Position numbers and translations under genes: made by a program. From Escherichia coli (GTDB lineage Bacteria; Pseudomonadota; Gammaproteobacteria; Enterobacterales; Enterobacteriaceae), in the NCBI RefSeq assembly GCF_016903815.1, contig NZ_CP069973.1: a DNA stretch of 64,000 nucleotides; one strand, written 5' to 3'. A model generated the notes under the pieces. The model did no database searches, had not been told where the DNA came from, and saw only the letters and a list, made by a program, of their open reading frames with translations. Position 1 is the stretch's first letter, and the number at the start of each line of letters is the position of its first letter. Of this stretch, positions 946 to 54,631 are shown in pieces.

Positions 946-2664
946 TTACCTTAGCCAGTTTGTTTTCGCCAGTTCGATCACTTCATCGCCGCGTCCGCTG
1001 ATGATTGCGCGCAGCATATACAGGCTGAAACCTTTGGCCTGTTCGAGTTTGATCTGCGGTGGAATGGCTAATTCTTCTTTGGCGACCACCACATCCACCA
1101 GCACCGGACCGTCGATGGAAAAGGCGCGTTGCAGGGCTTCATCGACTTCAGAGGCTTTTTCCACGCGAATACCCGTAATTCCGCACGCTTCGGCAATGCG
1201 GGCAAAGTTGGTGTCGTGCAGCTCAGTACCGTCTGTCAGGTAGCCTCCGGCTTTCATCTCCATCGCCACAAAGCCCAGCACGCTGTTATTAAAGACGATA
1301 ATTTTCACCGGCAGTTTCATCTGCACTACTGAGAGGAAATCGCCCATCAACATGCTAAAACCGCCATCGCCGCACATGGCGACCACCTGACGTTCCGGCT
1401 CGGTTGCCTGCGCACCCAACGCCTGCGGCATGGCGTTAGCCATCGAACCGTGGTTAAACGAACCTAACAGACGACGCTTGCCGTTCATTTTCAGATAACG
1501 TGCCGCCCACACCGTTGGCGTACCAACGTCACAGGTAAAGATGGCGTCATCGGCGGCAAAATGACTAATTTGCTGCGCCAGATATTGCGGGTGAATGGCT
1601 TTCTCGCTCGGTTTAGCTAAATCGTCCAGCCCTTTGCGGGCGTCGCGGTAATCTTCCAGCGCTTTATCCAGAAACTTGCGATCGGCTTTTTCTTCCACCA
1701 ATGGCAGCAATGCACGCAGAGTCGACTTGATATCGCCGACCAGTGCCATATCCACCTTGCTGTGAGCGCCGATGCTGGCTGGGTTGATATCAATCTGAAT
1801 GATTTTGGCATCGGTCGGGTAGAAGGCGCGGTAGGGGAACTGAGTACCGAGTAGCACTAACGTGTCGGCGTTCATCATGGTATGGAAACCTGACGAGAAG
1901 CCAATTAATCCCGTCATTCCGACATCATACGGATTATCGTATTCGACATGTTCTTTACCGCGCAGGGCATGAACAATAGGCGCTTTAATTTTCCCGGCAA
2001 ACTCAACTAACTCTTTATGCGCCCCCGCGCAGCCGCTGCCACACATCAGGGCGATATTGCTGGAATAACGCAGCAGTTGCGCCAGTTTGCGTAACTCTTC
2101 TTCTTCCGGCGTCACGACTGGCTGTGGCGCATGATACCAGTGCGAGGTTGCCCCTTCTGGCGCAGGTTTTAACGCCACGTCGCCCGGTAACACGACAACG
2201 GAAACGCCACGGTTAAGCACCGCTTTGCGCATGGCAATCGCCAGCACTTGTGGGATCTGCTCCGGGCTGGAAACCAGCTCGCAATAGTGACTACATTCGC
2301 GGAATAGCTCTTGTGGGTGGGTTTCCTGGAAATAGCCGCTGCCAATTTCGCTGGAGGGAATATGAGCGGCAATCGCCAGTACCGGAACGTGATTGCGGTG
2401 GCAATCAAACAGGCCGTTGATTAAGTGCAGGTTTCCGGGGCCGCACGATCCGGCACAGACCGCCAGTTCTCCTGAAAGTTGTGCTTCAGCGCCAGCGGCA
2501 AAGGCCGCCACTTCTTCATGGCGGGTGGACATCCACTCGATGGTGCCCATGCGATTAAGACTGTCACTAAGACCGTTCAGAGAGTCGCCCGTGACTCCCC
2601 AGATGCGTTTCACGCCTGCCGATTCGAGTGTTTTGGCGATATAAGCTGCAACCGTTTGTTTCAT
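946..2664 (-). CDS. poxB: pyruvate oxidase (ubiquinone-dependent, ThDP/FAD)
   Basis: 572-aa ORF, full-length match to PoxB as I recall it; ThDP-binding GDG motif region. Confidence 0.95.
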
Positions 2665-2796
2665 GGTTCTCCATCTCCTGAATGTGATAACGGTTACAAG
2701 TTTAGTTCATCTGACGGAGGGGGAAGGGATGGGAGAAAAAGGAGGCACTAACGGTTAAATAGCCCGATGAAAGGAATATCATCGGGCATAAGGCGA

Positions 2797-3765
2797 TTAT
2801 GCGAGAACCAAATCTCCCTGCGGATGGCAGGAGCAGGCCAGTACGTAACCTTCAGCGATTTCGGCGTCGGTCAGCGTCATTGTGCTGCTTACCGTATATT
2901 CACCGGAAACCACTTTTGTCTTACAGCAGCCGCAAACACCTGCACGGCAGGCGGCGACAACCGGAACGTTATTGCTTTCCAGCGCCTCCAGTAGCGTGGT
3001 GCCAACCGGGGCGTAAAATTCTCGTGCCGGTTGCAGTTTGGTGAATTTCAGACCGCTGGTCGCCGCTTCCGCTACTGGGGTGAAGAATTTCTCTTTAAAG
3101 AAACGCGTCACGCCGAGCGCTTTCACTTCCTGCTCTACCCAATCCATATACGGAGCCGGGCCGCAGGTCATCACGGTACGTGAAGCTAAGTCAGGAACGC
3201 GAGTCAGCAGTTCGCGAGTGAGACGACCAGCGATAAAGCCTTCGGTAACGTTATTTTCTGCCACCAGCGTCACCGGATAGTTGCGCCACTCATCGGCGAA
3301 AATAACATCCTGCGGCGAACGCACGTTGTAGATCACCTGCACATCGGCCTGCGGACGGTTCTTCGCCAGCCAGCGACGCATCGACATAATCGGCGTGACG
3401 CCGCAGCCTGCCGCCAGCAACAGGAATTTATCTTCTGCTTTATCGTCGCAGGTAAATTCCCCCATCGCGTCCGAAAGCCAGAGATAATCACCGCGTTTTA
3501 CATCGCGCGTCAGCCACTGGGAGCCGACACCGTCATCAATCCGCCGCACGGTCAGGGTGATATATTCACTCACGCCTGGCGTGGAGGAAATGGTGTAAGC
3601 ACGCAGCGTTTCCGCTGAGTTACGCACGCTGACCAGTGCATATTGCCCGGCGCGATATGGGTAGTAATCGTGGCAAATCAGGGAAATCGTCCACACATCC
3701 GGCGTTTCTTGCGTAATGTGATGAACCTGCATCCGCCATGGGCATTGATTCGTTGGCATCGTCAT
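2797..3765 (-). CDS. hcr: NADH oxidoreductase for hybrid-cluster protein (FAD/2Fe-2S)
   Basis: ORF with internal start MTMPTNQCPW; C-terminal ferredoxin-type Cys cluster (CRAGVCGCC); immediately downstream of hcp. Confidence 0.9.
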   Translation of the reverse strand: MTMPTNQCPWRMQVHHITQETPDVWTISLICHDYYPYRAGQYALVSVRNSAETLRAYTISSTPGVSEYITLTVRRIDDGVGSQWLTRDVKRGDYLWLSDAMGEFTCDDKAEDKFLLLAAGCGVTPIMSMRRWLAKNRPQADVQVIYNVRSPQDVIFADEWRNYPVTLVAENNVTEGFIAGRLTRELLTRVPDLASRTVMTCGPAPYMDWVEQEVKALGVTRFFKEKFFTPVAEAATSGLKFTKLQPAREFYAPVGTTLLEALESNNVPVVAACRAGVCGCCKTKVVSGEYTVSSTMTLTDAEIAEGYVLACSCHPQGDLVLA

Positions 3766-3776
3766 CGACAAACTCC

Positions 3777-5429
3777 TTACGCGCTCAACAGTTGCTTCAT
3801 GTCTTCTTCAACAGTGGTGATAGAACGCAGGCCGAATTTCTCGTTCAGCACCGCCAGCAGGTCTGGTGTCAGGAAACCAGGTGCAGTCGGGCCGGTTACG
3901 ATATTTTTTACACCCAGAGAAAGCAGTGTCAGCAGAATGACAATCGCTTTCTGTTCAAACCACGAGAGCACCAGCGACAGCGGCAGATCGTTGACACCGC
4001 AGCCCAGTTTTTCTGCCAGCGTTACCGCCAGAATAATCGCTGAGTAAGCATCGTTACATTGACCTGCATCTACCAGACGCGGCAGACCTTCGATATCGCC
4101 AAACTCGAGTTTGTTAAAGCGATATTTACCACAGGCGAGAGTCAGGATCAGACAGTCATCCGGCACGCTGGTGGCGAAATCGGTGAAGTAGTGACGCTCG
4201 CCGCGTGCGCCGTCACAGCCGCCAAGCAGGAAGATATGACGCAGTTTTTCACGGCTTACCAGATCAATCAGCGTATCCGCTGCGCCAAGCAGCGTTTGAC
4301 GACCAAAGCCCACGGTGATCAGGTGCGGAATTTCGCTGTACGGGAAGCCCGCCATTTGTTGCGCCTGGGCGATGACCGCAGAGAAATCTTCGCCATCCAG
4401 ATGACGCACACCCGGCCAGCCAACGATGCTGCGGGTCCAGATACGATCGTCATAAGCGCCTACGGTTGGGTCGATGATGCAGTTCGAGGTCATCACGATG
4501 GGGCCAGGGAAACGAGCGAACTCCACTTGCTGATTCTGCCAGCCGCTGCCGTAGTTACCGACCAGATGCTTGAATTTACGCAGCTCCGGGTAGCCATGCG
4601 CAGGCAGCATTTCGCCGTGGGTGTAGACATTAACGCCCGTGCCTTCGGTCTGTTCCAGCAGGTTGTAGAGATCTTTGAGATCGTGACCGGAAATCAGAAT
4701 GCATTTACCCGCCGTCGCTTTGACGTTGACCTGGGTTGGCGTCGGGTGACCGTATTTACTGGTTTCGCCTGCATCCAGAATGCTCATCACTTTGAAGTTC
4801 ATCTGGCCGATTTCCATTGAACACTCAAGAAGCGCGTTCATATCGGCAGGCCAGGTCCCCAGCCACGCCATGATTTTATGGTACTGGGCGTAAATATCAT
4901 TGTCGTATTGACCGAGAACGTGTGCGTGTTCCATATAGGCCGCCGCACCTTTCAGGCCATACAGGCACAGCAGGCGCAGGCCGAGAATGTTTTCGCCAAT
5001 CGCCGCTTTATCTTTGTTAGGGGTAAATTCTGCTGCCTGACGTTGCAGCTCGCCGAGATCATCGCTCACCAGTTGCAGGTCAGCCATCGGGTTATCGACG
5101 CGGGCGTTGGCATCTACAGCCAGGCATTGTGCTTTCAGCGCCTCGCGCAGGGCAATCGCTTCACGAGCGTAGCCGACTATACGCGGAGAATCGAAGTTAA
5201 CGTTGGTCAGGGTTGAGAAAAATGCGCGTGGCGCAAAGCTGTCTACATCGTGGTTGATGATGCCGTATTCACGCGCTTTTACCGCCCAGGCCGAAAGCCC
5301 TTGCAGCGCCGCGATGAGTAAATCCTGAAGGTCAGAGGTTTCCGCCGTTTTACCACACATCCCCTGCGCGTATGAGCAGCCGTTTCCTGCCGGAGTACGG
5401 ATAGTTTGTTCACATTGCACACAAAACAT
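3777..5429 (-). CDS. hcp: hybrid-cluster protein / hydroxylamine reductase
   Basis: 550-aa product starting MFCVQCEQT with N-terminal Cys cluster; synteny. Confidence 0.92.
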
Positions 5430-5572
5430 GATCACACCTTTTAAAGTTATATTTAATATACATGTTTAAGGTTAAGACGCTTAACGCAGGGATAAAAGGG
5501 ATTTTTCATGCAACTTTAAGGGAGATTGATTTAGCGCAATTTTGGCGGCAGGGATCTACCGCCAGAGAGGTA

Positions 5573-6472
5573 TTACGCAGAGAAAAAGGCGATGAGGATC
5601 GGCACTAACAGGCTAAGAATAAAACCGTGAACAATTGCCGCCGGGACCATATCCAGCCCGCCAGTACGTTGAAGAACGGGCAGGGTGAAATCCATTGATG
5701 TGGCACCGCATAAGCCCAGTGCAGTCGAGCGGCTGCGGCGAATCAGCCCAGGGATCAACATAATAGCAATCAGCTCACGGGCCAGATCATTAAAAAACGC
5801 CGCGCTCCCGATTACCGGACCAAAAGATTCGGTCAATAAAATACCGGAAAGAGAATACCAGCCGAAACCGGAGGCCATTGCCAGCGCGGTATTGATGGGA
5901 AGATCAAGAATAAAGGCGTTAATTAAACCACCAATTAATGAACTGGCAACCACCACCACGGCGACAATCATTCCCCGGCGATTAAGGACAATCTGCTTTA
6001 AGGTCATGCCATTATTGCGCAACTGAATACCGACGAGGAAAAGTAGTAGAATTAAGGTGTATTCACTGGCTTCGGTCGCGTGTTGTAAGAAAGCCAGTCC
6101 ACTCAGGCCAATGGCAAAACCAATCACTACTACGCCGCACAGTTTTAGCGACTCCAGCGCCATCGCAATACGCGACGGGAGTTTTTCTTGCTGGTGGTAG
6201 TTGCGCCACGGCAGACCGCGCTCCAGCCACATCAGGGCGGCAATATTACACAGTAAAATAACGGTAATACTGACAGCAGAATAATGCAGAATCGCCAACA
6301 GGTTACTGGCGAGGTTATCGAGAAACGCCAGACTGATACCCATAAAAAAGAGAATAAGGTAAACCATCCAACTTAATAGCTGATTAATAACTCTTAATGC
6401 AGCTTTTTGGCGAAGCGGAATGAGGTAACCCACAATCAGGGGAACCAGAATGATTAACAGCCCAGAAAACAT
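5573..6472 (-). CDS. lysO: lysine exporter LysO (YbjE), inner membrane protein
   Basis: Multi-TM ORF; start chosen at MFSGLLIILVPL to give ~299 aa; synteny next to aqpZ. Confidence 0.85.
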   Translation of the reverse strand: MFSGLLIILVPLIVGYLIPLRQKAALRVINQLLSWMVYLILFFMGISLAFLDNLASNLLAILHYSAVSITVILLCNIAALMWLERGLPWRNYHQQEKLPSRIAMALESLKLCGVVVIGFAIGLSGLAFLQHATEASEYTLILLLFLVGIQLRNNGMTLKQIVLNRRGMIVAVVVVASSLIGGLINAFILDLPINTALAMASGFGWYSLSGILLTESFGPVIGSAAFFNDLARELIAIMLIPGLIRRSRSTALGLCGATSMDFTLPVLQRTGGLDMVPAAIVHGFILSLLVPILIAFFSA

Positions 6473-6955
6473 GAAAACCCAGTCCTTGCAAAGATGAAGT
6501 CGAAATGCGCGATGACACACTACTGAAAGCGGAAGGACGAGTAAAGTTGCAATTAAAAGGAAATGTTATGCATAAGGATCGGTAGGGTATTCATTTTCAT
6601 TTAAAGATATTCTTGCGCTTTAATTACAAACCGCACCGGTGTTGGTGGCGTCAAAATCGCCGAGGCGTTCCCTGAAGGCCGGGGCAGCCCACATGGATGT
6701 GGGCTGAGGGCGCGTTTTACAGGGATGTTACCTCGCGCCCGACCCGGTAGCCGCAAGGGATAAGTCGAGGGCACCGCGCAGCGGCGATTTTGTTCGCCAG
6801 AGCCCGGGGGTGCAGGGGGCGGCGGCGATTGGCCGCCCCCTGCGCGCTCCCTGCGCCAGTGACTATATGTGGCTTAACACATCAAGGAGCGCAACAGGAA
6901 GATGAATCAATATATTTAAAAAAGGCCTGACATTGCGCCAGGCCTTCTGCGTTAA

Positions 6956-7651
6956 TTAATTACGTTTTTCCAGCAGGGGCCGGTAAATCAGACCACCGAT
7001 AATACCGCCGACAATTGGCACCACCCAGAAGAACCACAGTTGTTCTAACGCCCAGCCGCCCTGGAAGATAGCAACCGCGGTGCTGCGCGCCGGGTTAACA
7101 GAAGTGTTAGTCACCGGAATACTGATTAAGTGAATCAGGGTTAAGGCCAGACCAATAGCGATCGGCGCAAAACCAGCAGGAGCGAATTTGTCGGTTGCGC
7201 CGTGGATCACCAGCAGGAAACCTGCACTCAATACCAGTTCAACTACCAGCGCGGAAAGCATGGAATAACCGCCTGGCGAATGCTCGCCATAACCGTTAGA
7301 AGCAAAACCGCTGGCTGCCGCGTCAAAACCCGTTTTACCACTGGCAATTAAATACAGCAGCGCCGCCGCAACAATACCGCCGACAACCTGGGCAATTACG
7401 TAGCCAACGACTTCTTTTGCCGGGAAACATCCGCCAGCCCATAAACCAATAGTGACCGCCGGGTTAAAATGACCACCAGAAATATGACCAACAGCAAAGG
7501 CCATCGTCAGAACGGTCAGACCGAATGCCAGCGCCACGCCGGCAAAACCAATGCCTAATTCCGGGAAGCCTGCGGCCAGTACGGCACTACCACAGCCACC
7601 AAAAACAAGCCAGAAAGTACCAAAACATTCAGCTGCTAATTTTCTGAACAT
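6956..7651 (-). CDS. aqpZ: aquaporin Z
   Basis: 231-aa MIP-family protein with two NPA motifs ([15 protein letters not shown]); start [14 protein letters not shown]. Confidence 0.95.
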
Positions 7652-8076
7652 ATCCACCTCAATTAAAAATTGACCCTGTGAAAAATATGGTCGTTTTATA
7701 GGGTCGTCGTAAAAAAGTGACGACGGAAATAATGCGCGGCTATTTTAAAAACGAAGGCAAATCATTCGCCAGATAAATAAATCCAGTAAATTTGATTTAG
7801 GGCAACAGCGGGTTGCCCCATATAGTCATTTGTCTGATTGACAGTGTAGTGCAAGCGAAAGATTTAATCCTTTAGGCGTAATAAAAAATAATTTATCATG
7901 CTAATTATTTGATTTTGTTGTTTTTGCAGGCTTATCAGCAAGAGGGAGTATAACGCGATTATTCGCTCATTTTTCAGACATTTGCCATGCTTAAATGTGA
8001 TGTCATCACGTATTAGCAAGGCCTTTCCCGTTATACTGCCAGCGTAAAGGATAAGTCACATATTTCTGGAGGGGAT

Positions 8077-45271: not shown

Positions 45272-45543
45272 GTATTCGTATTGAAATTGGCGAACGTTAT
45301 GTCGTTACCAGTGACAGCTTTCAGTTTATTCTCCACGAGAAAAAGAGAGCTGAAAGCGGTAAAAACGCCGGTCAGGAATGGCTGGCGGTGGTTGGTTATT
45401 ACCCGAAATTAAGCCAGCTTGTTTCCGGCCTGATGCATCACGATATTCTGACCGGAAGCGCAAAGTCTTTTGCTGATTTAAACGCGCAGGTTGAGCAACT
45501 CAGCAAGCGTTGTTCAGAGGCTTTTGGCTCATATGGCCGTTAA
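45268..45543 (+). CDS. P2 orf83-like hypothetical protein
   Basis: 91-aa ORF preceding A. Confidence 0.7.
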   Translation: MSIRIEIGERYVVTSDSFQFILHEKKRAESGKNAGQEWLAVVGYYPKLSQLVSGLMHHDILTGSAKSFADLNAQVEQLSKRCSEAFGSYGR

Positions 45544-47821
45544 AGCCTCCGGGCGTTTTGTCCCTCCGTCAGCATTTGCCGCAGGCACCGGTGAGACGTT
45601 TACCGGTGCTTATGCATGGAACGCGCCACGCGAGGCCGTCGGGCGCGAAAGACCCCTTACACGTGACGAGATGCGTCAGGTGCAAGGTGTTTTATCCACG
45701 ATTAATCGCCTGCCTTACTTTTTGCGCTCGCTGTTTACTTCACGCTATGACTACATCCGGCGCAATAAAAGCCCGGTGCACGGGTTTTATTTCCTCACAT
45801 CCACTTTTCAGCGCCGTTTATGGCCGCGTATTGAGCGCGTGAATCAGCGCCATGAAATGAACACCGACGCGTCGTTGCTGTTTCTGGCAGAGCGTGACCA
45901 TTATGCGCGTCTGCCGGGGATGAATGACAAGGAGCTGAAAAAGTTTGCTGCCCGTATCTCATCGCAGCTTTTCATGATGTATGAGGAACTCAGCGATGCC
46001 TGGGTGGATGCGCATGGCGAAAAAGAATCGCTGTTTACGGATGAGGCGCAGGCTCACCTCTATGGTCATGTTGCTGGCGCTGCACGTGCTTTCAATATTT
46101 CCCCGCTCTACTGGAAAAAATACCGTAAAGGACAGATGACCACGAGGCAGGCATTTTCTGCTATTGCCCGCCTGTTTAACGATGAGTGGTGGATTAGCCA
46201 GCTTAAAGGCCAGCGTATGCGCTGGCATGAGGCGTTACTGATTGCTGTCGGGGAGGTCAATAAAGACCGTTCTCCTTATGCCAGTAAACATGCCATTCGT
46301 GATGTGCGTGCGCGCCGCCAGGCAAATCTGGAATTTCTTAAATCGTGTGACCTTGAAAACAGGGAAACCGGCGAGCGCATCGACCTTATCAGTAAGGTGA
46401 TGGGCAGTATTTCTAATCCTGAAATTCGCCGGATGGAGCTGATGAACACCATTGCCGGTATTGAGCGTTACGCCGCCGCAGAGGGTGATGTGGGGATGTT
46501 TATCACGCTGACCGCGCCGTCAAAGTATCACCCGACTCGTCAGGTCAGAAAAGGCGAAAGTAAAACCGTTCAGCTTAATCACGGCTGGAACGATGAGGCA
46601 TTTAATCCAAAGGATGCGCAGCGTTATCTCTGCCGCATCTGGAGCCTGATGCGCACGGCATTCAAGGATAATGATTTACAGGTCTACGGTTTGCGTGTCG
46701 TCGAGCCACACCACGACGGAACGCCGCACTGGCATATGATGCTTTTTTGTAATCCACGCCAGCGTAACCAGATTATCGAAATCATGCGTCGCTATGCGCT
46801 CAAAGAGGATGGTGACGAAAGAGGAGCCGCGCGAAACCGTTTTCAGGCAAAGCACCTTAACCGGGGCGGTGCTGCGGGATATATCGCGAAATACATTTCA
46901 AAAAATATCGACGGCTATGCACTGGATGGTCAGCTCGATAACGATACCGGTAAGCCGCTTAAAGATACTGCCGCGGCTGTTACCGCATGGGCGTCAACGT
47001 GGCGCATCCCGCAATTTAAAACGGTTGGACTGCCGACAATGGGGGCTTACCGTGAACTACGCAAATTGCCTCGCGGCGTCAGTATTGCTGATGAGTTTGA
47101 CGAACGCGTCGAGGCTGCTCGCGCTGCCGCAGACAGTGGTGATTTTGCGTTGTATATCAGCGCGCAGGGTGGGGCAAATGTCCCGCGCGATTGTCAGACT
47201 GTCAGGGTTGCCCGTAGCCCGTCGGATGACGTTAACGAGTACGAGGAAGAAGTCGAGAGAGTGGTCGGCATTTACGCGCCGCATCTCGGCGCGCGTCATA
47301 TTCATATCACCAGAACGACGGACTGGCGCATTGTGCCGAAAGTTCCGGTCGTTGAGCCTTTGACTTTAAAAAGCGGCATCGCCGCGCCTCGGAGTCCTGT
47401 CAATAACTGTGGAAAACTCACCGATGGTGATACTTCGTTACCGGCTCCCACACCTTCTGAGCACGCCGCAGCAGTGCTTAATCTGGTTGATGACGGTGTT
47501 ATCGAATGGAGTGACCCGGAGGTCGTGAGGGCGCTCAGAGGTGCATTAAAACACGGTCGGAGAACGCCAAATCGTCAGCAAAGAAACGGAAGCCCGTTAA
47601 AACCACATGAAATTGCACCATCGGCCAGACTGGCCCGGTCGGAAAGAATGCAAATTACCCGTATCCGCGTTGACCTTGCTCAGAACGGTATCAAGCCGCA
47701 GCGATGGGAGCTTGAGGCGCTGGCGCGTGGCGCGACCGTAAATTATGACGGGAAAAAATTCACGTATCCGGTCGCTGATGAGTGGTTCGGATTTCAAGAT
47801 GAAGTGTCATTTTTTATATAA
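45533..47821 (+). CDS. A: P2 replication initiation protein A (rolling-circle nickase)
   Basis: ~762 aa from MAVKASGRFVPPSAFAAG; HUH-type region (EPHHDGTPHWHMMLF) and catalytic tyrosine region (AGYIAKYISKN). Confidence 0.92.
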   Translation: MAVKASGRFVPPSAFAAGTGETFTGAYAWNAPREAVGRERPLTRDEMRQVQGVLSTINRLPYFLRSLFTSRYDYIRRNKSPVHGFYFLTSTFQRRLWPRIERVNQRHEMNTDASLLFLAERDHYARLPGMNDKELKKFAARISSQLFMMYEELSDAWVDAHGEKESLFTDEAQAHLYGHVAGAARAFNISPLYWKKYRKGQMTTRQAFSAIARLFNDEWWISQLKGQRMRWHEALLIAVGEVNKDRSPYASKHAIRDVRARRQANLEFLKSCDLENRETGERIDLISKVMGSISNPEIRRMELMNTIAGIERYAAAEGDVGMFITLTAPSKYHPTRQVRKGESKTVQLNHGWNDEAFNPKDAQRYLCRIWSLMRTAFKDNDLQVYGLRVVEPHHDGTPHWHMMLFCNPRQRNQIIEIMRRYALKEDGDERGAARNRFQAKHLNRGGAAGYIAKYISKNIDGYALDGQLDNDTGKPLKDTAAAVTAWASTWRIPQFKTVGLPTMGAYRELRKLPRGVSIADEFDERVEAARAAADSGDFALYISAQGGANVPRDCQTVRVARSPSDDVNEYEEEVERVVGIYAPHLGARHIHITRTTDWRIVPKVPVVEPLTLKSGIAAPRSPVNNCGKLTDGDTSLPAPTPSEHAAAVLNLVDDGVIEWSDPEVVRALRGALKHGRRTPNRQQRNGSPLKPHEIAPSARLARSERMQITRIRVDLAQNGIKPQRWELEALARGATVNYDGKKFTYPVADEWFGFQDEVSFFI

Positions 47822-48039
47822 AAAACGTTAAAATTCAATGCAATGAAGGCATGGAGGAGGTCGCTTTAATATGTTTTATGTTTAATATTTATTAATTGTT
47901 TATTTAATATAAAAAAATATTATATATAGGGAGATCAAATACAACGGTTTACTTGTTATGATGCAAACATTGGTTAGTTAGTGAGATACATCGCCATCAA
48001 TTGGGTAACTTTACCCGTGGAAAGTTAACGCTTTCTAAC

Positions 48040-48225
48040 ATTTACCCCGCGCAACGCCCCTGCCAGCGACAAGAGTCACAGGATCAGGCGGTATGGCGTA
48101 TGGGTATTCGAACCCTTTGGGCGACCAAGGGTTCGTGGAGCAGGGGGCTAGTGCTGTTCAATCTCATCCTTATGAGGGCGAACCATAGTGTTGGAGCAGG
48201 CATATCGTTTGCACACTATGGGCAT
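48040..48225 (+). ncRNA. candidate structured ncRNA (possible retron msr/msd or other regulatory RNA)
   Basis: GC-rich island in AT-rich cargo with several stems: cgcccctgc/gcagggg (48054-48147), cgaaccctt/aagggttcg (48107-48134), ccatagtg/cactatgg (48183-48221); immediately upstream of the HTH-RT genes. Confidence 0.3.
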
Positions 48226-48237
48226 AAGGAGCAAATC

Positions 48238-48393
48238 ATGAAGAATGATAAATTAACCAACGAACAGCAGGCGCAGAACAAGTCAAACCTGAAAAAGTGG
48301 GCTGGTTATGTTTGGAAATTAATCAAATGGGGTATTAGACTGTTTGATTTAGCCACTCGAGCACTGGACTACTTTGAAGGGGGTGATGAGTAA
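48238..48393 (+). CDS. small 51-aa protein, amphipathic (hypothetical)
   Basis: ATG with AAGGAG RBS 6-7 nt upstream; MKNDKLTNEQQAQNKSNLKKWAGYVWKLIKWGIRLFDLATRALDYFEGGDE; may instead be untranslated RNA. Confidence 0.35.
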   Translation: MKNDKLTNEQQAQNKSNLKKWAGYVWKLIKWGIRLFDLATRALDYFEGGDE

Positions 48394-48429
48394 TGCGTCC
48401 TCCCTAGTTTCAATAGCATGGAGTTGCCT

Positions 48430-48750
48430 ATGTTACACAGAGCCCTTCGTTTAATAAGGCAATACCATAAAGAGTCATTGGTTGATTTATCAACATCTTT
48501 AGGTATTCCAAAAGAAAAAATAGTAGAACTCGAAAGTGGGGTTTGGTCGCCTACAATTGATGTTTTACAGCGTTACGCCTCCCATTTCGATATGCCGGTA
48601 TCTTCTTTAGTATTTTTTTCAGAATCGTTAGGTACGCAGGGGCGTTTATCTAAGCGTTTCCGTTTAAATTTAGCTGGTAAAGTATTAGATGTTATTGAGT
48701 GGGCGAATAAGAAAAATGAAAAGACGAATAAAACTCAAAATTTCCACTAA
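48430..48750 (+). CDS. XRE/Cro-type helix-turn-helix protein, putative partner of the RT
   Basis: 106 aa from MLHRALRLIRQYHKESLVDLSTSLGIPKEKIVELESGVWSPTIDVLQRYASHFDMPVSSLVFF (HTH_XRE-like pattern); GGAG RBS; 3' end overlaps the RT start. Confidence 0.6.
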   Translation: MLHRALRLIRQYHKESLVDLSTSLGIPKEKIVELESGVWSPTIDVLQRYASHFDMPVSSLVFFSESLGTQGRLSKRFRLNLAGKVLDVIEWANKKNEKTNKTQNFH

Positions 48751-49666
48751 AAATAAATCTTACGATATAATTGATTCGCCGTTTTATAAAATGAGAAGTA
48801 AAAGGAAATTGGCTTCTTTATTGGGGGTTGATGTAGGGGATTTATCAACCTTAAAAAAAGATGAAGGCAATTATTCTATTTTTGAACAGTTATCTAAAAA
48901 CGGAAAGCCACGTAAGATACAAAAACCATTAGAAAAATTAGATGTGGTGCATACTCGTATTGCAAGTCTGCTATCGCGAATTACTTTGCCAGATTATCTA
49001 CATTCTGGAAAGAAGGGATGTTCTAATGTTACTAATGCTAAAATCCACCTTAATAATGAAAGGTTGATGACAACCGACATCAGGGCTTTTTTTCCATCAA
49101 CTACCAGAGAAATGATATTTTCATTCTTTTTTTCTGTTATGAAGATGTCATCTGATGTTGCGGATGTATTATCGTATATATGTACTTGCTATGGGCGTTT
49201 GCCTACAGGTAGCAGGATTAGTATGCCTCTTGCATATTTTGCAAATTCCAGAATGTTCGGAGAAATACACCAACTTTGTAATAAACTACACGTAAATATG
49301 TCTGTTTATGTTGATGATCTAACTTTTTCAGGACAAAACGTTAATAGACTATTTTGTTCAGTGATTCGCAAAATAATAAATAAGCATGGTCATGTGATGC
49401 ATGCGGATAAAACAAAAATTTATAGTAGAGAAAAGCCTAAGTTGGTAACAGGTGTTATTGTTTTGGGCGGTTCTTTAAAAGTCAGGAATAAGCAGCATCT
49501 TTTAATGTCTCAAGAAATTGAATATTGGAAAATGATAAAGGATGCAGCGTGTGCAAGAGAAACTCATACTGCCAAAAAGTTATTTGGACGATTGCATTCT
49601 ATGGGGGTAATTGAACAACGTTATAGATCAAAGGTGCTTACATTAAAAGCAAGTACTGCACTTTAA
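48716..49666 (+). CDS. retron-type reverse transcriptase
   Basis: RT motifs visible: DIRAFFPS (motif A), YVDDLTFSG (motif C), retron-typical NAxxH (NAKIH) and VTG (KLVTGVIVLGG); ~316 aa; start codon uncertain (48689, 48716 or 48791). Confidence 0.8.
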   Translation: MKRRIKLKISTKNKSYDIIDSPFYKMRSKRKLASLLGVDVGDLSTLKKDEGNYSIFEQLSKNGKPRKIQKPLEKLDVVHTRIASLLSRITLPDYLHSGKKGCSNVTNAKIHLNNERLMTTDIRAFFPSTTREMIFSFFFSVMKMSSDVADVLSYICTCYGRLPTGSRISMPLAYFANSRMFGEIHQLCNKLHVNMSVYVDDLTFSGQNVNRLFCSVIRKIINKHGHVMHADKTKIYSREKPKLVTGVIVLGGSLKVRNKQHLLMSQEIEYWKMIKDAACARETHTAKKLFGRLHSMGVIEQRYRSKVLTLKASTAL

Positions 49667-49774
49667 TACAGGTTTCTGTAAGTGATTATATTGTTCTTAA
49701 GATACTTACTGATGTTATTTCCCCGTAGCCTTAATTTCTGCGGGGAAGTATGGAGATATTTTGGTTATGGAATG

Positions 49775-51139
49775 CTAATTTTTTAATGTGTATTTTTCTG
49801 TGATTAGTTTCATTGTTCTTTCCAATCCTAAATATACAGTGGCATCAGTAATATTGAGCACGGCAAGTTCTTTTAAAATTTTCTTTTTGTCTCTGATGTT
49901 TATTTTTTCTGTCTTAAAATTGTATGGTGAATTATCTGCCTGATCGTTGGATATCTCAGGAAAAACGGCGTTATTACCGAATAATAAAAAGGCACCGGAT
50001 TGAGATGATATTCTTTCATTATTTATTCTGCTTTTTACAAAAATTATTTTTTCCAAATCCTCTGGATTTATTATGCTTTTAAAATATGGTTTTTCATGCT
50101 TTATGGATTCTAAGAGTTTAAGGCAAGCATGAGAGCTGTTAAAATCATTATTTCTTTCTTCGAAAGAAAGCTTGTCTTTCATGTCTTTTGATAGCATGCA
50201 TAAATTAGATATGCAACTGACAGTGTCGGAATCGAAAAATTTAATGTTCTCTCTGTGTGTTTTAAATATTATTACTTGACCATCGATATCGTTTTTGTCG
50301 GAATTTATACTACTGCATGCAAAATAAAGTGCAATTAATGGATTTGATGTGATGTCAAGTAAGCGAGTAGGTATGCCATAATGTTGCATTCTTACAAGTT
50401 TATCAAGCATTGATGTATCATCAATGAATTCTGAGGGTCTTGCGCTCAATGCTTCTTTAACAAGGTTGATTTCATTATGTAGAAATTTATAGTTCCCATT
50501 TTCATATTTTCTGAAAAGAGATGGTGCAAGTTCATAAGATGAATCTGAATGACCCCTGTAAAAAATCTCCTCATCCATATCTGCTGTTATATGGAGAACT
50601 TTTTCAATAAATTCTTGTAAACTATTTACGGTTAATAATGTGCTATCTTCGTCTGGGAGAGGCGCTGGACTGCTATCCACTTGTGCATTTTGGTTAATAC
50701 CAAATGTCTTAAGGATATCATCTATATTTTTGTCTTTTATGGCCCAGTGTGTTCTTTTAAGGCCATAAGTTCCGAGTTCTAAACTGCTTTCAACACTTTT
50801 GGCGTCTGATATTTTGATTTCATTGTGTGTATGGGTGATTGCAAATTGGAAGTTGATTTCTTTTCCCTTAATGTGAATATTTGAAATTCTTCCAATTCGT
50901 ATGTCGACATAATAAGGTTTTGCTCCCTCTATTTGATAAGCTTCACTCATGAATATTGTTGGGAGTTTTTCAAGATAAGATAGTACATTACTGCTTAATG
51001 GGGATAGTTTTTTACGAATACCATCGGAGGTGTTTTCAAACATTCGTGATAAAAGAAATGAGAATTCTCCATTATTTTGGCTGAATGGTTTCCAGTGGTC
51101 GTAGTGGTCGGGAAAACCACCCATAATTAAATTAATCAT
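49775..51139 (-). CDS. FRG-domain-like protein (C-terminal FRG-type motifs, uncharacterised N-terminal domain); candidate defense gene
   Basis: 454-aa AT-rich ORF convergent with the RT; motifs FYRGHSDSSYELAPSLFR and RMQHYGIPTRLLDITSNPLIALYFA. Confidence 0.6.
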   Translation of the reverse strand: MINLIMGGFPDHYDHWKPFSQNNGEFSFLLSRMFENTSDGIRKKLSPLSSNVLSYLEKLPTIFMSEAYQIEGAKPYYVDIRIGRISNIHIKGKEINFQFAITHTHNEIKISDAKSVESSLELGTYGLKRTHWAIKDKNIDDILKTFGINQNAQVDSSPAPLPDEDSTLLTVNSLQEFIEKVLHITADMDEEIFYRGHSDSSYELAPSLFRKYENGNYKFLHNEINLVKEALSARPSEFIDDTSMLDKLVRMQHYGIPTRLLDITSNPLIALYFACSSINSDKNDIDGQVIIFKTHRENIKFFDSDTVSCISNLCMLSKDMKDKLSFEERNNDFNSSHACLKLLESIKHEKPYFKSIINPEDLEKIIFVKSRINNERISSQSGAFLLFGNNAVFPEISNDQADNSPYNFKTEKINIRDKKKILKELAVLNITDATVYLGLERTMKLITEKYTLKN

Positions 51140-51463
51140 AATTACCTGTTCATCTGACGTAGGTGTAGGAATGCTTGTTGTTTGTTATGGTAATGTTAAC
51201 GCTTGTTGGTGGCAACTACTATTACTACTTGCTGTTAGAGCTAAGACATTTTTTGATTGCTTGTAATGATAGCGAGCCTTTAACTAACTGGGATTTTGAA
51301 AAAATAAATGAATTGTCAATTTCCTGAGATTTTTATTACTGCATTCATTAAGTGCATTTTTTTGCGTGTGTTAGTTGCCATGCTTTTCCATGTTTGTTAT
51401 CAGTGTTGATGCGGTTACTGTGTTTTAATGCAATTGCATTAAAAGCGCCCTATGAAGCGGGCG

Positions 51464-51482
51464 GGCGAGGCGGGGAAAGCAC
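51464..51482. other. P2-type cos site (19-nt cohesive end sequence)
   Basis: ggcgaggcggggaaagcac, matching the P2 cohesive end as I recall it; lies between the cargo island and the Q portal gene. Confidence 0.6.
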
Positions 51483-51651
51483 TGCGCGCTGGCGGTGGTG
51501 CTGATTTTATTTTTTCAGCGTCTCAGCGCGTCGTGACGGCGCTTAGTCTGCCCGTTGAGGCGTTGGTGTGTCTGCGGGGGGTTTTGTGCGGTGGTGAGCG
51601 TGTGAGGGCGTGATGGCGGGTTGTAAAAAAGCCGCCCGCAGGCGGCGATGT

Positions 51652-52686
51652 TCAGCCGTTGTCAGTGTCCAGTGAGTAGTTTTTAAAGCGGATGACCTCC
51701 TGACCGAGCCAGCCGTTTATTTCCCGAATCCTGTCCTGTAACGGGATAAGCTCATTGCGGACAAAGACCTTTGCCACTTTCTCAATATCACCCAACGACC
51801 CGACGTTCTCCGGCTTGCCGCCCATCAACTGAAAAGGGATGCGGTGCGCGTCCAGCAGGTCAGCGGCGCTGGCTTTTTTGATATTAAAAAAATCGTCCTT
51901 CGTTGCTACTTCACTGAGCGGGATAATTTTAATGCCGTCAGCTTTCCCCTGCGGGGCATAGAGAAACAGGTTTTTAAAGTTGTTGCGGCCTTTCGACTTC
52001 ACCATGTTTTCGCGAAGCATTTCGATATCGTTGCGATCCTGCACGGCATCAGTGACGTACATGATGTATCCGGCATGAGCGCCGTTTTCGTAATACTTGC
52101 GGCGGAACAGCGTGGCCGACTCATTCAGCCAGGCAGAGTTAAGGGCGCTGAGATATTCCGGCAGGCCGTACAGCTCCTGATTAATATCCGGCTCCAGCAG
52201 GTGAAACACGGAACCGGGCGCGAAGGCTGTCGGCTCGTTGAAGGACGGCACCCACCAGTAAACATCCTCCTCCACGCCACGGCGGGTATATTTTGCCGGT
52301 GAGATTTCCAGTCTGATGACCTTACCGGTGGTGCTGTAACGCTTTTCCAGAAATGCATTACCGAACACCAGAAAATCCAGCACAAAGCGGCTGAAATCCT
52401 GCTGGGAAAGCCACGGATGCGGGATAAATGTCGAGGCCAGAATATTACGTTTGACGTAAATCGGTGAGCTGTGATGCACGGCAGCACGCAGGCTTTTTGC
52501 CAGACCGGTAAAGCTGACCGGTGGCTCATACCATCTGCCGTTACTGATGCACTCAACGTAATCCAGAATGTCACGGCGGTCGAGTACCGGCACCGGCTCA
52601 CCAAAGGTGAATGCCTCCATTTTCGGGGCGCTGGCGGTCATTGTTTTTGCCGCAGGTTGCGGTGTTTTCCCTTTTTTCTTGCTCAT
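51652..52686 (-). CDS. Q: P2 portal protein gpQ
   Basis: 344-aa ORF MSKKKGKTPQPAAKTMTASAPKMEAFTFGEPVPVLDRRDILDY; adjacent to cos and P. Confidence 0.9.
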   Translation of the reverse strand: MSKKKGKTPQPAAKTMTASAPKMEAFTFGEPVPVLDRRDILDYVECISNGRWYEPPVSFTGLAKSLRAAVHHSSPIYVKRNILASTFIPHPWLSQQDFSRFVLDFLVFGNAFLEKRYSTTGKVIRLEISPAKYTRRGVEEDVYWWVPSFNEPTAFAPGSVFHLLEPDINQELYGLPEYLSALNSAWLNESATLFRRKYYENGAHAGYIMYVTDAVQDRNDIEMLRENMVKSKGRNNFKNLFLYAPQGKADGIKIIPLSEVATKDDFFNIKKASAADLLDAHRIPFQLMGGKPENVGSLGDIEKVAKVFVRNELIPLQDRIREINGWLGQEVIRFKNYSLDTDNG

Positions 52687-54458
52687 CAGTAAAACTCCAG
52701 AATGGTGGATGTCAGCGGGGTGCTGATACCGGCGGTGAGTGGCTCATTTAACAGGGCGTGCATGGTCGCCCAGGCGAGGTCGGCGTGGCTGGCTTCCTCG
52801 CTGCGGCTGGCTTCATAGGTGGCACTGCGTCCGCTGCTGGTCATGGTCTTGCGGATAGCCATAAACGAGCTGGTGATGTCGGTGGCGCTGACGTCATATT
52901 CCAGACAGCCACGGCGGATAACGTCTTTGGCCTTGAGCACCATTGCGGTTTTCATTTCCGGCGTGTAGCGGATGTCGCGCGCGGCGGGATAGAACGAGCG
53001 CACGAGCTGGAACACGCCGACACCGAGGCCGGTGGCATCAATTCCGATGTATTCGACGTTGTATTTTTCGGTGAGTTTGCGGATGGATTCAGCCTGGGTG
53101 GCAAAGTCCATGCCTTTCCACTGGTGACGCTCAAGTATTCTGAATTTGCCACCGGCCACCACCGGCGGTGCCAGCACCACGCATCCGGCGCTGTCGCCAC
53201 GGTGTGACGGGTCGTAACCAATCCATACCGGGCGGGAGCCGAACGGATTGGCGGCAAACGGTGCATAGTCTTCCCATTCTTCCAGCGTGTCGACCATGCA
53301 GCGTTGCAGCTCCTCGAACGGGAACACCGATGCCTTGTCGTCAACAAATTCACACATGAACAGGTTTTTAAAATCGTCGGCGCTGTTTTCGCGTTTGAGC
53401 TGCTCAATGTCGAACAGCGTGCAGCCGCCTTTCAGGGCGTCCTCAATGGTGACAATCTGTCGCCACTGGCCGTCCGCACAGAGAAGCCCACCGGCAAGGG
53501 CGTTATGACTGACGTCGATTTCCACGCGTTCGGCGGCGCTGGCGCGTCCCCGGTTGAACAGTTCACCCGACCAGAACGGGTAGGCGTCGTGCGCCAGCGT
53601 GGACGGGGTGGAGAAATAGGTCGAGCGCAGGTGACTCTGTGAGGCCATACCTGATGCCACCTTACGCAGTACCTGAAAATTCGGGATCCAGAAAATCTCG
53701 TCGACGTACAGGTCGCCGTTATGGCTCTGTGCGGTGTTGGAGTTGGTGCCGAGAAAAATCAGTTTTGCGCCGTTATTGCCCAGGACAATCGGGTCACCGG
53801 TCAGGTCAACGTCAACCAGCCGGGCAAAGGCGATGATGTATTCGCGGAACACATACGCCTGCGTTTTACTGGCCGACAGAAAAATCTGGTTATGACCGGT
53901 TTTCAGGGCGCGCAGCAGCGCCTCGCGGGAAAAATAAAACGTTGCGCCAATCTGGCGGGATTTCAGGATATCGCGGATGCGGTGCTCAAGCCCGGCGCGA
54001 TACCAGTGCAACTGATAGTCGAAAGACTGCTCAAAGAAAATCTGCTCCAGCTTTTCGATGGCCTCGTCACTGAAAAAATTCTTTTTCGGTTTGCGCCGCC
54101 CGCCTTTGTTGCGGTTAGCGACGTTCGGATTAAGGTCTGCCTCGTTGCCGGTCTGGCTGTAACGGTTGACCCGTGCCAGTCGTTCAATCTGGCGTCCCAG
54201 CAGGTCAATTTCCTTGAAGTCACCGCCGGTTTTCTGCGGTTTGATGATGAGCTGGGTCAGCCGCGCTTCCAGACTCATTTCGACACGGCTGATGGGGGCA
54301 ACGCTGTCCCAGCCGTCGCGCTGTTTCCAGCTCTGCACCGTCGGGCGTTTCATCTGCAACATGGCGGCAATCTGCGGCACGGAAAACCCCTGCCAGTACA
54401 GCAGCGCCGCCTGACGACGCGGGTCGTGTAAAAGAGTGGTGTCTGTGGTGATGGTCAT
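52686..54458 (-). CDS. P: P2 terminase large (ATPase) subunit gpP
   Basis: ~590 aa from MTITTDTTLLHDPRR; terminase family. Confidence 0.9.
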   Translation of the reverse strand: MTITTDTTLLHDPRRQAALLYWQGFSVPQIAAMLQMKRPTVQSWKQRDGWDSVAPISRVEMSLEARLTQLIIKPQKTGGDFKEIDLLGRQIERLARVNRYSQTGNEADLNPNVANRNKGGRRKPKKNFFSDEAIEKLEQIFFEQSFDYQLHWYRAGLEHRIRDILKSRQIGATFYFSREALLRALKTGHNQIFLSASKTQAYVFREYIIAFARLVDVDLTGDPIVLGNNGAKLIFLGTNSNTAQSHNGDLYVDEIFWIPNFQVLRKVASGMASQSHLRSTYFSTPSTLAHDAYPFWSGELFNRGRASAAERVEIDVSHNALAGGLLCADGQWRQIVTIEDALKGGCTLFDIEQLKRENSADDFKNLFMCEFVDDKASVFPFEELQRCMVDTLEEWEDYAPFAANPFGSRPVWIGYDPSHRGDSAGCVVLAPPVVAGGKFRILERHQWKGMDFATQAESIRKLTEKYNVEYIGIDATGLGVGVFQLVRSFYPAARDIRYTPEMKTAMVLKAKDVIRRGCLEYDVSATDITSSFMAIRKTMTSSGRSATYEASRSEEASHADLAWATMHALLNEPLTAGISTPLTSTILEFY

Positions 54459-54631
54459 GAATACCTCGCCGTGATGAATACACGGCAAGGCTACTGAGTC
54501 GCGCCCCGCGATTCGCTAAGGTGCTGTTGTGTCAGTGATAAGCCATCCGGGACTGATGGCGGAGGATGCGCATCGTCGGGAAACTGATGCCGACATGTGA
54601 CTCCTCTAATCACTATTCAGGACTCCTGACA

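Follow-up and report, generated by a model that had tools for sequence, protein, structure and literature searches.

Type VI retrons are operons in which a noncoding RNA (ncRNA) is followed by genes for a small protein (SP) that serves as the toxin, a helix-turn-helix (HTH) protein, and a reverse transcriptase (RT) (bioRxiv 10.1101/2025.10.22.683967; bioRxiv 10.64898/2026.04.27.721009). They provide defense when cloned alone as SP–HTH–RT operons, and the Red and Gam functions of phage lambda are the published triggers. RT-dependent formation of msDNA (multicopy single-stranded DNA) and phage defense have been demonstrated for the relatives Vpa2, Eco12, and Sen3. The interval between gpA and gpQ of phage P2 (the tin/old site) is described, in the portions of Rousset et al. 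(2022, PMC9122126) that concern this site, as an antiviral hotspot where the same backbone position often carries more than one system per locus. The Frg proteins have been placed in the ADP-ribosyltransferase (ART) superfamily as possible NADases (Iyer et al. 2022, PMC9503650). Here, the cargo between gene A and the cohesive end site (cos) of a P2-like prophage was analyzed in a 64-kb stretch of Escherichia coli DNA (contig NZ_CP069973.1), which is referred to in its entirety as the window. This cargo very probably consists of two independent, separately transcribed cassettes that are stacked tail to tail, a plus-strand Type VI retron and a minus-strand gene for an FRG-domain protein, and is not one composite system.

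The A-to-cos interval of the window is the known P2 gpA–gpQ defense hotspot. The backbone is 95–100% identical on either side of it, and the cargo varies among the window, P2, and the compared loci L001, L002, L004, and L009. The left backbone border is gene A, with its stop codon at 47821. The last ~10 codons of gene A differ between cassette types when the 3′-end variants are compared, so the left junction lies inside the 3′ end of this gene; homology of the window to the orf91-type P2 prophage L004 stops at 47797. On the right, BLAST-level homology to the backbone is back from 51428 on in every locus compared. The 19-nt cohesive end GGCGAGGCGGGGAAAGCAC at 51464–51482 is identical to cosR of P2 (NC_001895), and the genes for the portal Q (51652–52686) and the terminase P (52686–54488) are both located beyond cos on the minus strand. 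The cargo of ~3.6 kb has a low GC content and is made of two convergent units. By BLAST breakpoints, the plus unit at 47822–49666 is the retron module and the minus unit at 49667–51427 is the FRG module. The features of the interval are collected in Table 1.

The original prediction, made from the letters of the window, had placed two convergent units between gene A and cos in a segment ending at 51463. The genes, the borders, and cos were all found there, and 51463 is the base before cos. All four parts named for the plus unit (ncRNA, small open reading frame (ORF), HTH, and RT) are present, as is the FRG-like gene on the minus strand. An abrupt switch to AT-rich DNA had been described at both borders. 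The GC content falls from 0.53 to 0.26 at 47800–47999, just past gene A, and rises from ~0.34–0.43 to 0.57 at 51400–51599 on the cos side, but the ncRNA stretch at 48000–48199 has a GC content of 0.535 and hence is not AT-rich. The proposed match to the pattern of defense cassettes in P2-family hotspots is borne out by the position in the gpA–gpQ hotspot and by PADLOC matches to RT_VI, HTH_VI, and PDC-S15.

Table 1. Positions of the features in and around the A-to-cos interval of the window (RBS, ribosome-binding site)
Feature	Position	Strand	Detail or basis
P2 gene A (replication endonuclease, 776 aa)	45491–47821	+	ORF and translation; "replication endonuclease" annotation in identical RefSeq loci
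AT-rich retron promoter region (26% GC)	47822–47932	+	composition; conserved −10-like hexamer
Hybrid RNA (hyRNA), ~480 nt	47933–48412	+	single-sequence fold, z −4.41; RNAalifold consensus
Long stem with variable center, candidate msd template stem	48043–48106	+	alignment columns 139–223; compensatory pairs 156–206 and 157–204
Invariant hairpin CGAACCCTTTG/CCAAGGGTTCG	48109–48135	+	helix 11, one compensatory pair; loop with GGGCGA
Riboregulator	48167–48230	+	anti-RBS TCCTTATG (48167–48174) pairs with CATAAGGA (48223–48230); internal stem-loop 48183–48221
SP, 51-aa small protein, predicted toxic effector	48238–48393	+	RefSeq WP_001754918.1; AAGGAG RBS upstream
Cro/C1-type HTH protein	48430–48750	+	106 aa from RefSeq start, 110 aa from ATG 48418; WP_016239054.1
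Retron reverse transcriptase, 316 aa from RefSeq start	48716–49666	+	WP_023148839.1; PADLOC, Pfam
Convergent intergenic gap, 108 nt, with hairpin 49716–49750	49667–49774		sequence; fold energies
FRG-domain protein, 454 aa	49775–51139	−	RefSeq WP_023148838.1
FRG upstream region (33–37% GC)	51140–51427	−	promoter-like TTGCCA-17-TACCAT at 51215→51187
P2 backbone and cos	51428–51482		conserved TGCATTAAAA element and GAAGCGGGCG flank, then the 19-nt cohesive end

The distribution of the two units was followed in 5,426 complete E. coli genomes and in the viral contigs of IMG/VR. The whole island is present at an identity of at least 99% in 59 of the E. coli genomes, which represent one phage lineage, and also in Peduovirus P22H1 (99.6% identity). 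Only the retron half, at 78–84% identity and followed by unrelated genes, is found in ~40 of the genomes. Diverged retron alleles at the same site (77–84% identical) have unrelated neighbors. The gene after the diverged RT is a minus-strand gene for a 145-aa protein in O157:H7, O139, and a Klebsiella phage, and a plus-strand gene for a 266-aa protein in strain 65COLEC. The cassettes that take the place of FRG are located at 6963–7400 (−) of L001 (145 aa, PHROG 2266) and at 6944–7744 (+) of L002 (266 aa, PHROG 7611), and neither protein has a PADLOC or other functional match. In three independent alleles, the BLAST breakpoints place the end of retron homology at the RT stop codon. Among the IMG/VR contigs, FRG is absent at 10 of the 16 retron loci and the retron is absent at 74 of the 80 FRG loci. 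FRG alleles with 30–58% identity appear in P2 hotspots, lambdoid prophages, and islands, all without a retron. The P2 prophage of STEC2017-197 has a 48%-identical FRG in the same cos-proximal, minus-strand position with DUF3850 and three unrelated ORFs as plus-strand neighbors, distant P2-like phages contain a 30–34%-identical FRG in the A–Q interval, and lone homologues are found in lambdoid prophages (AR_0077; phages Tritos and PhiR11_1) and in other islands. The neighbors of the FRG homologues differ in every context examined and are unrelated to one another, with no conserved partner.

The independent assortment, together with the homology break at the RT stop codon, leads to the reading of two stacked systems. 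The question of whether the units form one composite or two stacked systems, which the original prediction had posed, is thus resolved in favor of stacking: in the comparison across P2-like prophages that it had proposed as a check, the diverged alleles of the two units assort apart. The expected association with the hotspot was found in part, in that both units occupy the P2 site in relatives, but the FRG homologues are not confined to it. The island is a textbook illustration of how modules stack at the cos-proximal hotspot of P2. It is also a clean natural case of cassette borders: one falls within the final codons of gene A, another coincides with the stop codon of the RT, and the third precedes the cohesive end by 36 nt.

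Other arrangements of FRG were encountered in these surveys. A cos-like sequence is located between gpA and FRG in three P2-like contigs from IMG/VR (L091, L096, and L098), which places their FRG cargo between cos and Q, on the opposite side of cos from that of the window; for L091, the positions are 3037 (cos), 4001–5143 on the plus strand (FRG), and 6205–5183 (gpQ). In Klebsiella (L012–L014), a full-length FRG of 58% identity and an unknown neighbor of 439–465 aa are found between gpU and the tail-fiber genes, another variable site of the P2 type. The non-P2 island of E. coli C5 (L011, NZ_CP010122.1, 2218000–2232000) is a dense multi-system defense island next to yeiP. It contains a Type VI retron (RT 62%, SP 55%), an unknown 465-aa gene, a recombinase, and a 274-aa FRG convergent with Drt8, with HNH and AAA ATPase genes further on. 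A recurrent pairing of FRG with an RT was considered and rejected: Drt8 of E. coli C5 and the product of the gene convergent with FRG in Morganellaceae both have 504 aa but are unrelated, and no relationship exists between the two 465-aa neighbors either.

The plus unit is, as read from its sequence, a complete and self-sufficient Type VI retron composed of a structured RNA, SP, HTH, and RT. Seven retron variants were aligned: the window, two E. coli P2 alleles of ~84% identity, one of 78%, a Klebsiella phage, an IMG/VR contig, and the non-P2 island of E. coli C5. The SP ORF has 51 codons for amino acids in all seven, with 55–96% identity, conserved termini, and a hydrophobic core, and all 51 positions are matched to PHROG 15287. 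SP is predicted to be the toxic effector of the retron by analogy with the published systems (Zhang et al. 2025; Garcia-Rodriguez et al. 2026). The HTH gene matches PADLOC HTH_VI (7.2e-30, profile positions 1–91 of 92) and overlaps the RT gene by 35 nt; its product is predicted to be the repressor or antitoxin partner of the RT. The RT matches PADLOC RT_VI (1.1e-105, profile positions 1–278 of 279), with RT_III-A as the runner-up (5e-45). Its translation contains the motifs NAKIH, YVDD, and VTG and has a Pfam RVT_1 match.

The noncoding sequence upstream of the genes is better conserved among the seven variants than are the proteins, and one stretch of ~85 nt is nearly invariant. Judged from the sequence, retron transcription would start near 47933. 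The RNAalifold consensus contains 148 pairs, and 96.1% of the cells are paired. Compensatory changes were detected at 24 pairs of the hyRNA, compared with 9.1 ± 2.2 after column shuffling (0/500) and 2–6 in the slid-partner controls. The hyRNA is organized in three arms, which are an msr-msd-like 5′ arm at 47969–48135, a riboregulator arm that sequesters the RBS of SP, and an arm formed by the SP coding sequence (CDS). The closure is the long-range pairing of 48136–48147 with 48400–48412, which brackets the SP CDS. The 5′ arm begins with msr-like stem-loops at 47969–48037. The candidate msd template stem that follows, to which the variable SL3 of Retron-Sen3 is analogous, contains 18 inserted nt in two of the variants, those from Klebsiella and IMG/VR. 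A GGGCGA direct repeat is present once in the loop of the invariant hairpin and a second time at 48176–48181, just 3′ of the anti-RBS strand, and both copies are conserved at unpaired positions in 7/7 variants. The Shine–Dalgarno sequence of SP is within CATAAGGA and is buried by helix 14, which is identical in all seven variants; helices 15 and 16 of the riboregulator have 4 compensatory pairs. The third arm consists of the remaining SP CDS, and at least four compensatory pairs fall within the ORF. No family was matched in an Rfam scan of 47000–52000 at E ≤ 1, and the Type VI hyRNA is apparently absent from Rfam 15.

Two further repeats were noted in this region. One is a 9-nt direct repeat, TGGAGCAGG, with copies at 48136 and 48192. 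An 18-nt inverted repeat with 89% complementarity (TGATAAATTAACCAACGA/TCATTGGTTGATTTATCA) connects 48246–48263 at the start of the SP CDS with 48475–48492 in the HTH CDS and is a possible alternative long-range pairing.

The retron of the window shares most of its features with Retron-Vpa2 and Retron-Eco12 (Zhang et al. 2025), a likeness that is based on published descriptions and not on a sequence comparison. The operon order is the same, the hybrid RNA of ~470–480 nt is likewise three-armed with a 3′ end that pairs back to the msr-msd arm, and the RBS and start codon of SP are held in stem-loops. A short direct repeat is found in the msd loop and in the riboregulator (6 nt exact, GGGCGA, in the window versus 7 published), and the SP of ~51–55 aa has a hydrophobic C-terminal half. 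Retron-Sen3 of the cl2075 lineage (Garcia-Rodriguez et al. 2026) also has the SP–HTH–RT order, an RBS sequestered in the ncRNA, an HTH gene that overlaps the RT gene, a long-range inverted repeat that flanks the SP CDS, and a long internal stem with a variable center. The SP of Sen3 has 79 aa with an N-terminal extension, whereas that of the window has 51 aa and is nearer to the 55-aa Vpa2 type. Sen3 is described with constitutive single-stranded DNA (ssDNA) and post-translational control, and Vpa2 with translational control. The window thus holds an E. coli-native Type VI retron whose hyRNA has features reported for Vpa2 and Sen3.

By analogy with these relatives, a promoter in the AT-rich stretch would drive the ~480-nt hybrid RNA, which holds both the RT template and the SP CDS. 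The RBS of SP would be locked in the invariant helix, and HTH and RT would bind the hyRNA in a repressed complex that keeps the system off. Infection by a phage with recombination or RecBCD-inhibiting functions of the lambda Red/Gam type would lead to the accumulation of msDNA. The msDNA segment complementary to the GGGCGA loop could then pair with the second GGGCGA copy beside the anti-RBS strand and free the RBS, so that SP would be translated, growth arrested, and the infection aborted. The triggers, the toxicity, and the msDNA switch at this locus are in this way inferred from the relatives. The exclusion of lambda by P2 Old is red/gam-dependent (the Spi phenotype). Since Red and Gam also trigger Type VI retrons, the retron may fill the same ecological role as Old at the same locus.

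The FRG protein matches Pfam FRG (PF08867) at 5.3e-21 and the full length of the PADLOC PDC-S15 models at 9.2e-98 over residues 168–451, and it has a full-length match to a PHROG family of unknown function. More than 3,400 homologues were found, many of which are full proteins of ~450 aa at 42–66% identity in Enterobacterales, rhizobia, and Aeromonas. An AlphaFold2 model (42 sequences) has a pLDDT of 80.7, and residues 1–165 alone have a pLDDT of 91.6. Residues 1–~150 are modeled as a PUA-like (EVE/YTH/ASCH-type) beta-barrel whose fold matches include ASCH, VcaM4I, McrB-N, and PD-T4-3, with sequence identities to the matches of 5–14%. Residues ~170–452 are predicted from the model to form the FRG core with an ART-like fold, of the kind seen in ADP-ribosyltransferase toxins. 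The residues R195, H197, R259, D262, S379, and Q380 are invariant. The N-terminal domain is missing from many FRG proteins, which consist of a core of ~280 aa, so the predicted reader domain represents an addition in this subfamily. As in the PDC-S15/Frg clade, the gene is standalone with variable neighbors; the predicted N-terminal PUA-like domain of ~150 residues is extra in the subfamily of the window. Readers of the EVE/YTH/ASCH/SRA type also occur in modification-dependent (type IV) restriction enzymes (McrB-N, VcaM4I, and PD-T4-3). Their effectors are nucleases or GTPases, whereas that of the protein in the window is a predicted ART-like FRG domain, and the modeled resemblance of its N-terminal domain to these three is at the level of the fold only. 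A PDB sequence search with the FRG profile at E ≤ 1 returned nothing, and a Foldseek search of AFDB50 returned only other "FRG domain-containing" proteins and no functional lead.

Transcription of the FRG gene would run leftward from a promoter of its own next to cos, as in P2 old-tin. From the modeled folds, the PUA-like reader would most likely sense a nucleic-acid cue, after which the ART-like domain would consume NAD+ or ADP-ribosylate a target; the triggers and the activity of FRG are in this sense read from the fold. A tentative, and on present evidence somewhat unlikely, extension is that FRG is a new kind of single-protein sensor-effector, in which a PUA-like reader of modified or unusual phage nucleic acid is joined to an NAD+-depleting or ADP-ribosylating ART-fold output instead of a nuclease, and which fills the tin/old niche in P2-like prophages. 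The gene is widespread and uncharacterized, and the predicted reader-plus-ART-like architecture offers a testable hypothesis.

The two units would form one system if FRG served the retron as an accessory sensor or effector, for instance by binding msDNA via its PUA-like domain. The exact alleles are adjacent in all 59 genomes that carry the island, and a PUA-like reader of nucleic acid, as modeled, could in principle bind ssDNA. A Type VI retron is also located within ~3 kb of FRG in the unrelated island of E. coli C5, where FRG is itself convergent with another RT, Drt8. However, that FRG is the short form with 30% identity over 90 residues in a multi-system island, and its proximity to the retron was treated as a coincidence. 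Each unit is frequently found without the other (the ~40 E. coli genomes and the viral loci described above), the homology break falls exactly between them, they are on opposite strands with separate promoters, and the neighbors of FRG homologues are mutually unrelated. Type VI retrons also defend as SP–HTH–RT alone, and FRG is a single-gene system in PADLOC and in Rousset et al. A composite of the retron and FRG is accordingly regarded as highly improbable. Several points nonetheless weigh against the reading of two independent defense cassettes. The exact retron allele is always accompanied by the exact FRG allele (59/59), so that independence is shown only for diverged alleles. The consensus structure of the hyRNA was derived from the same seven-sequence alignment that was used to score it, and invariance leaves many key helices, the RBS helix among them, without covariation evidence. 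The msDNA, the toxicity of SP, and the triggers are carried over from relatives. These relatives differ in mechanism, and it is uncertain whether the retron of the window follows the Vpa2-like mode or the Sen3-like mode, with constitutive ssDNA and an HTH–SP toxin–antitoxin pair. Anti-phage activity of any FRG protein was not found in the literature searched.

The last of these points also favors a narrower account, in which only the retron is a defense system and FRG is a moron that rides along in the hotspot and serves some other purpose, for example as an NAD-related function of benefit to the prophage or host or as the toxin of an unrecognized addiction module. Non-defense cargo, namely partition systems and the CDT toxin, is listed for the P2 hotspot in the relevant portions of Rousset et al. 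(2022, PMC9122126), and one Aeromonas homologue of FRG is found among housekeeping-like genes. Against this account, FRG homologues recur in phage hotspots and defense islands, beside Drt8, beside a DEAD-box helicase with insertion sequence (IS) elements, and at P2 and lambdoid moron sites. In PADLOC, the family is included among the phage-defense candidates, the predicted reader-plus-ART-like architecture is typical of conflict systems, and the gene holds the place and orientation of P2 old, which makes a role of FRG outside defense improbable. The hairpin between the two units had been described in the original prediction, at ~49716–49745, as shared. The hairpin is real and stable. Its core stem is TTCCCCG (49719–49725) with CGGGGAA (49741–49747), and on the plus strand the stem can be lengthened to 13 pairs. 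The plus strand folds with an energy of −18.9 kcal/mol (z −4.6), and the minus strand with −11.9 kcal/mol (z −2.7). Retron homology stops at 49666/49670; the hairpin is outside this block and thus travels with the FRG-side module and is not shared. It could still act as a bidirectional intrinsic terminator that insulates both units, being the only strong local structure in the gap and located 50 nt past the RT stop and 25 nt past the FRG stop. It lacks a U-tract on both strands, the terminator scan made no call, and the core GC stem carries a 15-nt loop. Judged from the sequence, the hairpin is not a canonical intrinsic terminator, and a shared terminator function is conceivable but rather doubtful.

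The promoter-like stretch that had been proposed at 47830–47960 gained support in part. The low GC content is accompanied by a −10-like TATATA at 47921–47926 and a weak −35-like TTGTTT at 47896–47901, and the offset of the −10-like hexamer is unchanged among six divergent loci, with TATAAT as its sequence in L029. The consensus scan, however, found no sigma-70 promoter in 47830–47960 at its threshold, and the number of hits in the promoter and terminator scan was no greater than in shuffles. The native promoter of Retron-Eco12 is constitutive (Zhang 2025, bioRxiv 10.1101/2025.10.22.683967). The upstream region of FRG, which had been drawn from 51140 to 51460 up to cos, does contain a promoter-like site (Table 1), but the sequence from 51428 on is backbone. 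Because backbone homology resumes only at 51428, the segment to the left of it is cassette-specific. There is no BLAST-level homology in this segment, yet short motifs are found at fixed distances from cos in every P2-like locus, a GCATnnnnnTGCAT-like motif ~110 nt upstream and an ACTGG-like motif ~55–60 nt upstream. These were identified by comparison of 51354–51463 of the window with the same offsets in L001–L004, L009, L029, L091, L096, and L115. Because the motifs reach ~51354, the extended cos region and the upstream region of FRG overlap, and the functional cos region probably extends into the apparent cargo and the promoter region of FRG.

The arrangement described here is already known, in that both cassettes have been classified, the type of retron has been described mechanistically, and the locus has been catalogued. 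Table S5A of Rousset et al. (2022, PMC9122126), in the rows that concern this cargo, lists "hypothetical + FRG + RVT_1" with the HTH protein WP_016239054 and the RT WP_023148839, the accessions also found at the identical RefSeq locus, and the corresponding rows of Table S5B list "Type-VI retron" (#26, 132 loci) and "FRG" (#56, 75 loci) as separate systems (PMC9122126). Neither of these is among the systems reported as experimentally validated in the portions of that paper that deal with them (PMC9122126). There is no structural difference between the hotspot loci of that survey and the window, and its "FRG" sequence is nearly identical to the FRG of the window. In row 26, the first protein begins MKSAEYLNTFRLRNLG and is placed beside a genuine Type VI HTH sequence. 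This row probably reflects a mix-up of representative sequences. The sequence with this beginning is one that we take to be the RT of Retron-Eco1 (Ec86).

P2 itself has orf91, tin, and old at this position, and the old-tin mRNA runs leftward from beside cos. As with FRG in the window, the cos-proximal gene of P2 is thus read leftward from a promoter beside cos at the same locus. The old-tin genes provide exclusion of other phages by lysogenic conversion and have no sequence relationship to the cargo of the window. Old is an ATPase-Toprim nuclease and Tin is a poison of ssDNA-binding protein, whereas the cargo of the window is a retron and FRG. The two P2 genes form one leftward operon, and the units of the window are convergent.

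A perfect 22-nt palindrome, TTTTAATGCAA|TTGCATTAAAA, at 51423–51444 spans the junction of cargo and backbone at 51428. Its right arm (TGCATTAAAA) belongs to the backbone and is conserved in P2 and all relatives, and its left arm is cassette-specific, so the palindrome is generated by the junction itself. Several "complete" E. coli assemblies, including the records H7, H20, H28, H31, H33, H35, H45, H48, H50, and L004, open the chromosome record at the start of the prophage gene A, and the island is then located at 2290–5931. The step that fixes the start of these assemblies apparently chose the P2 replication gene instead of dnaA.

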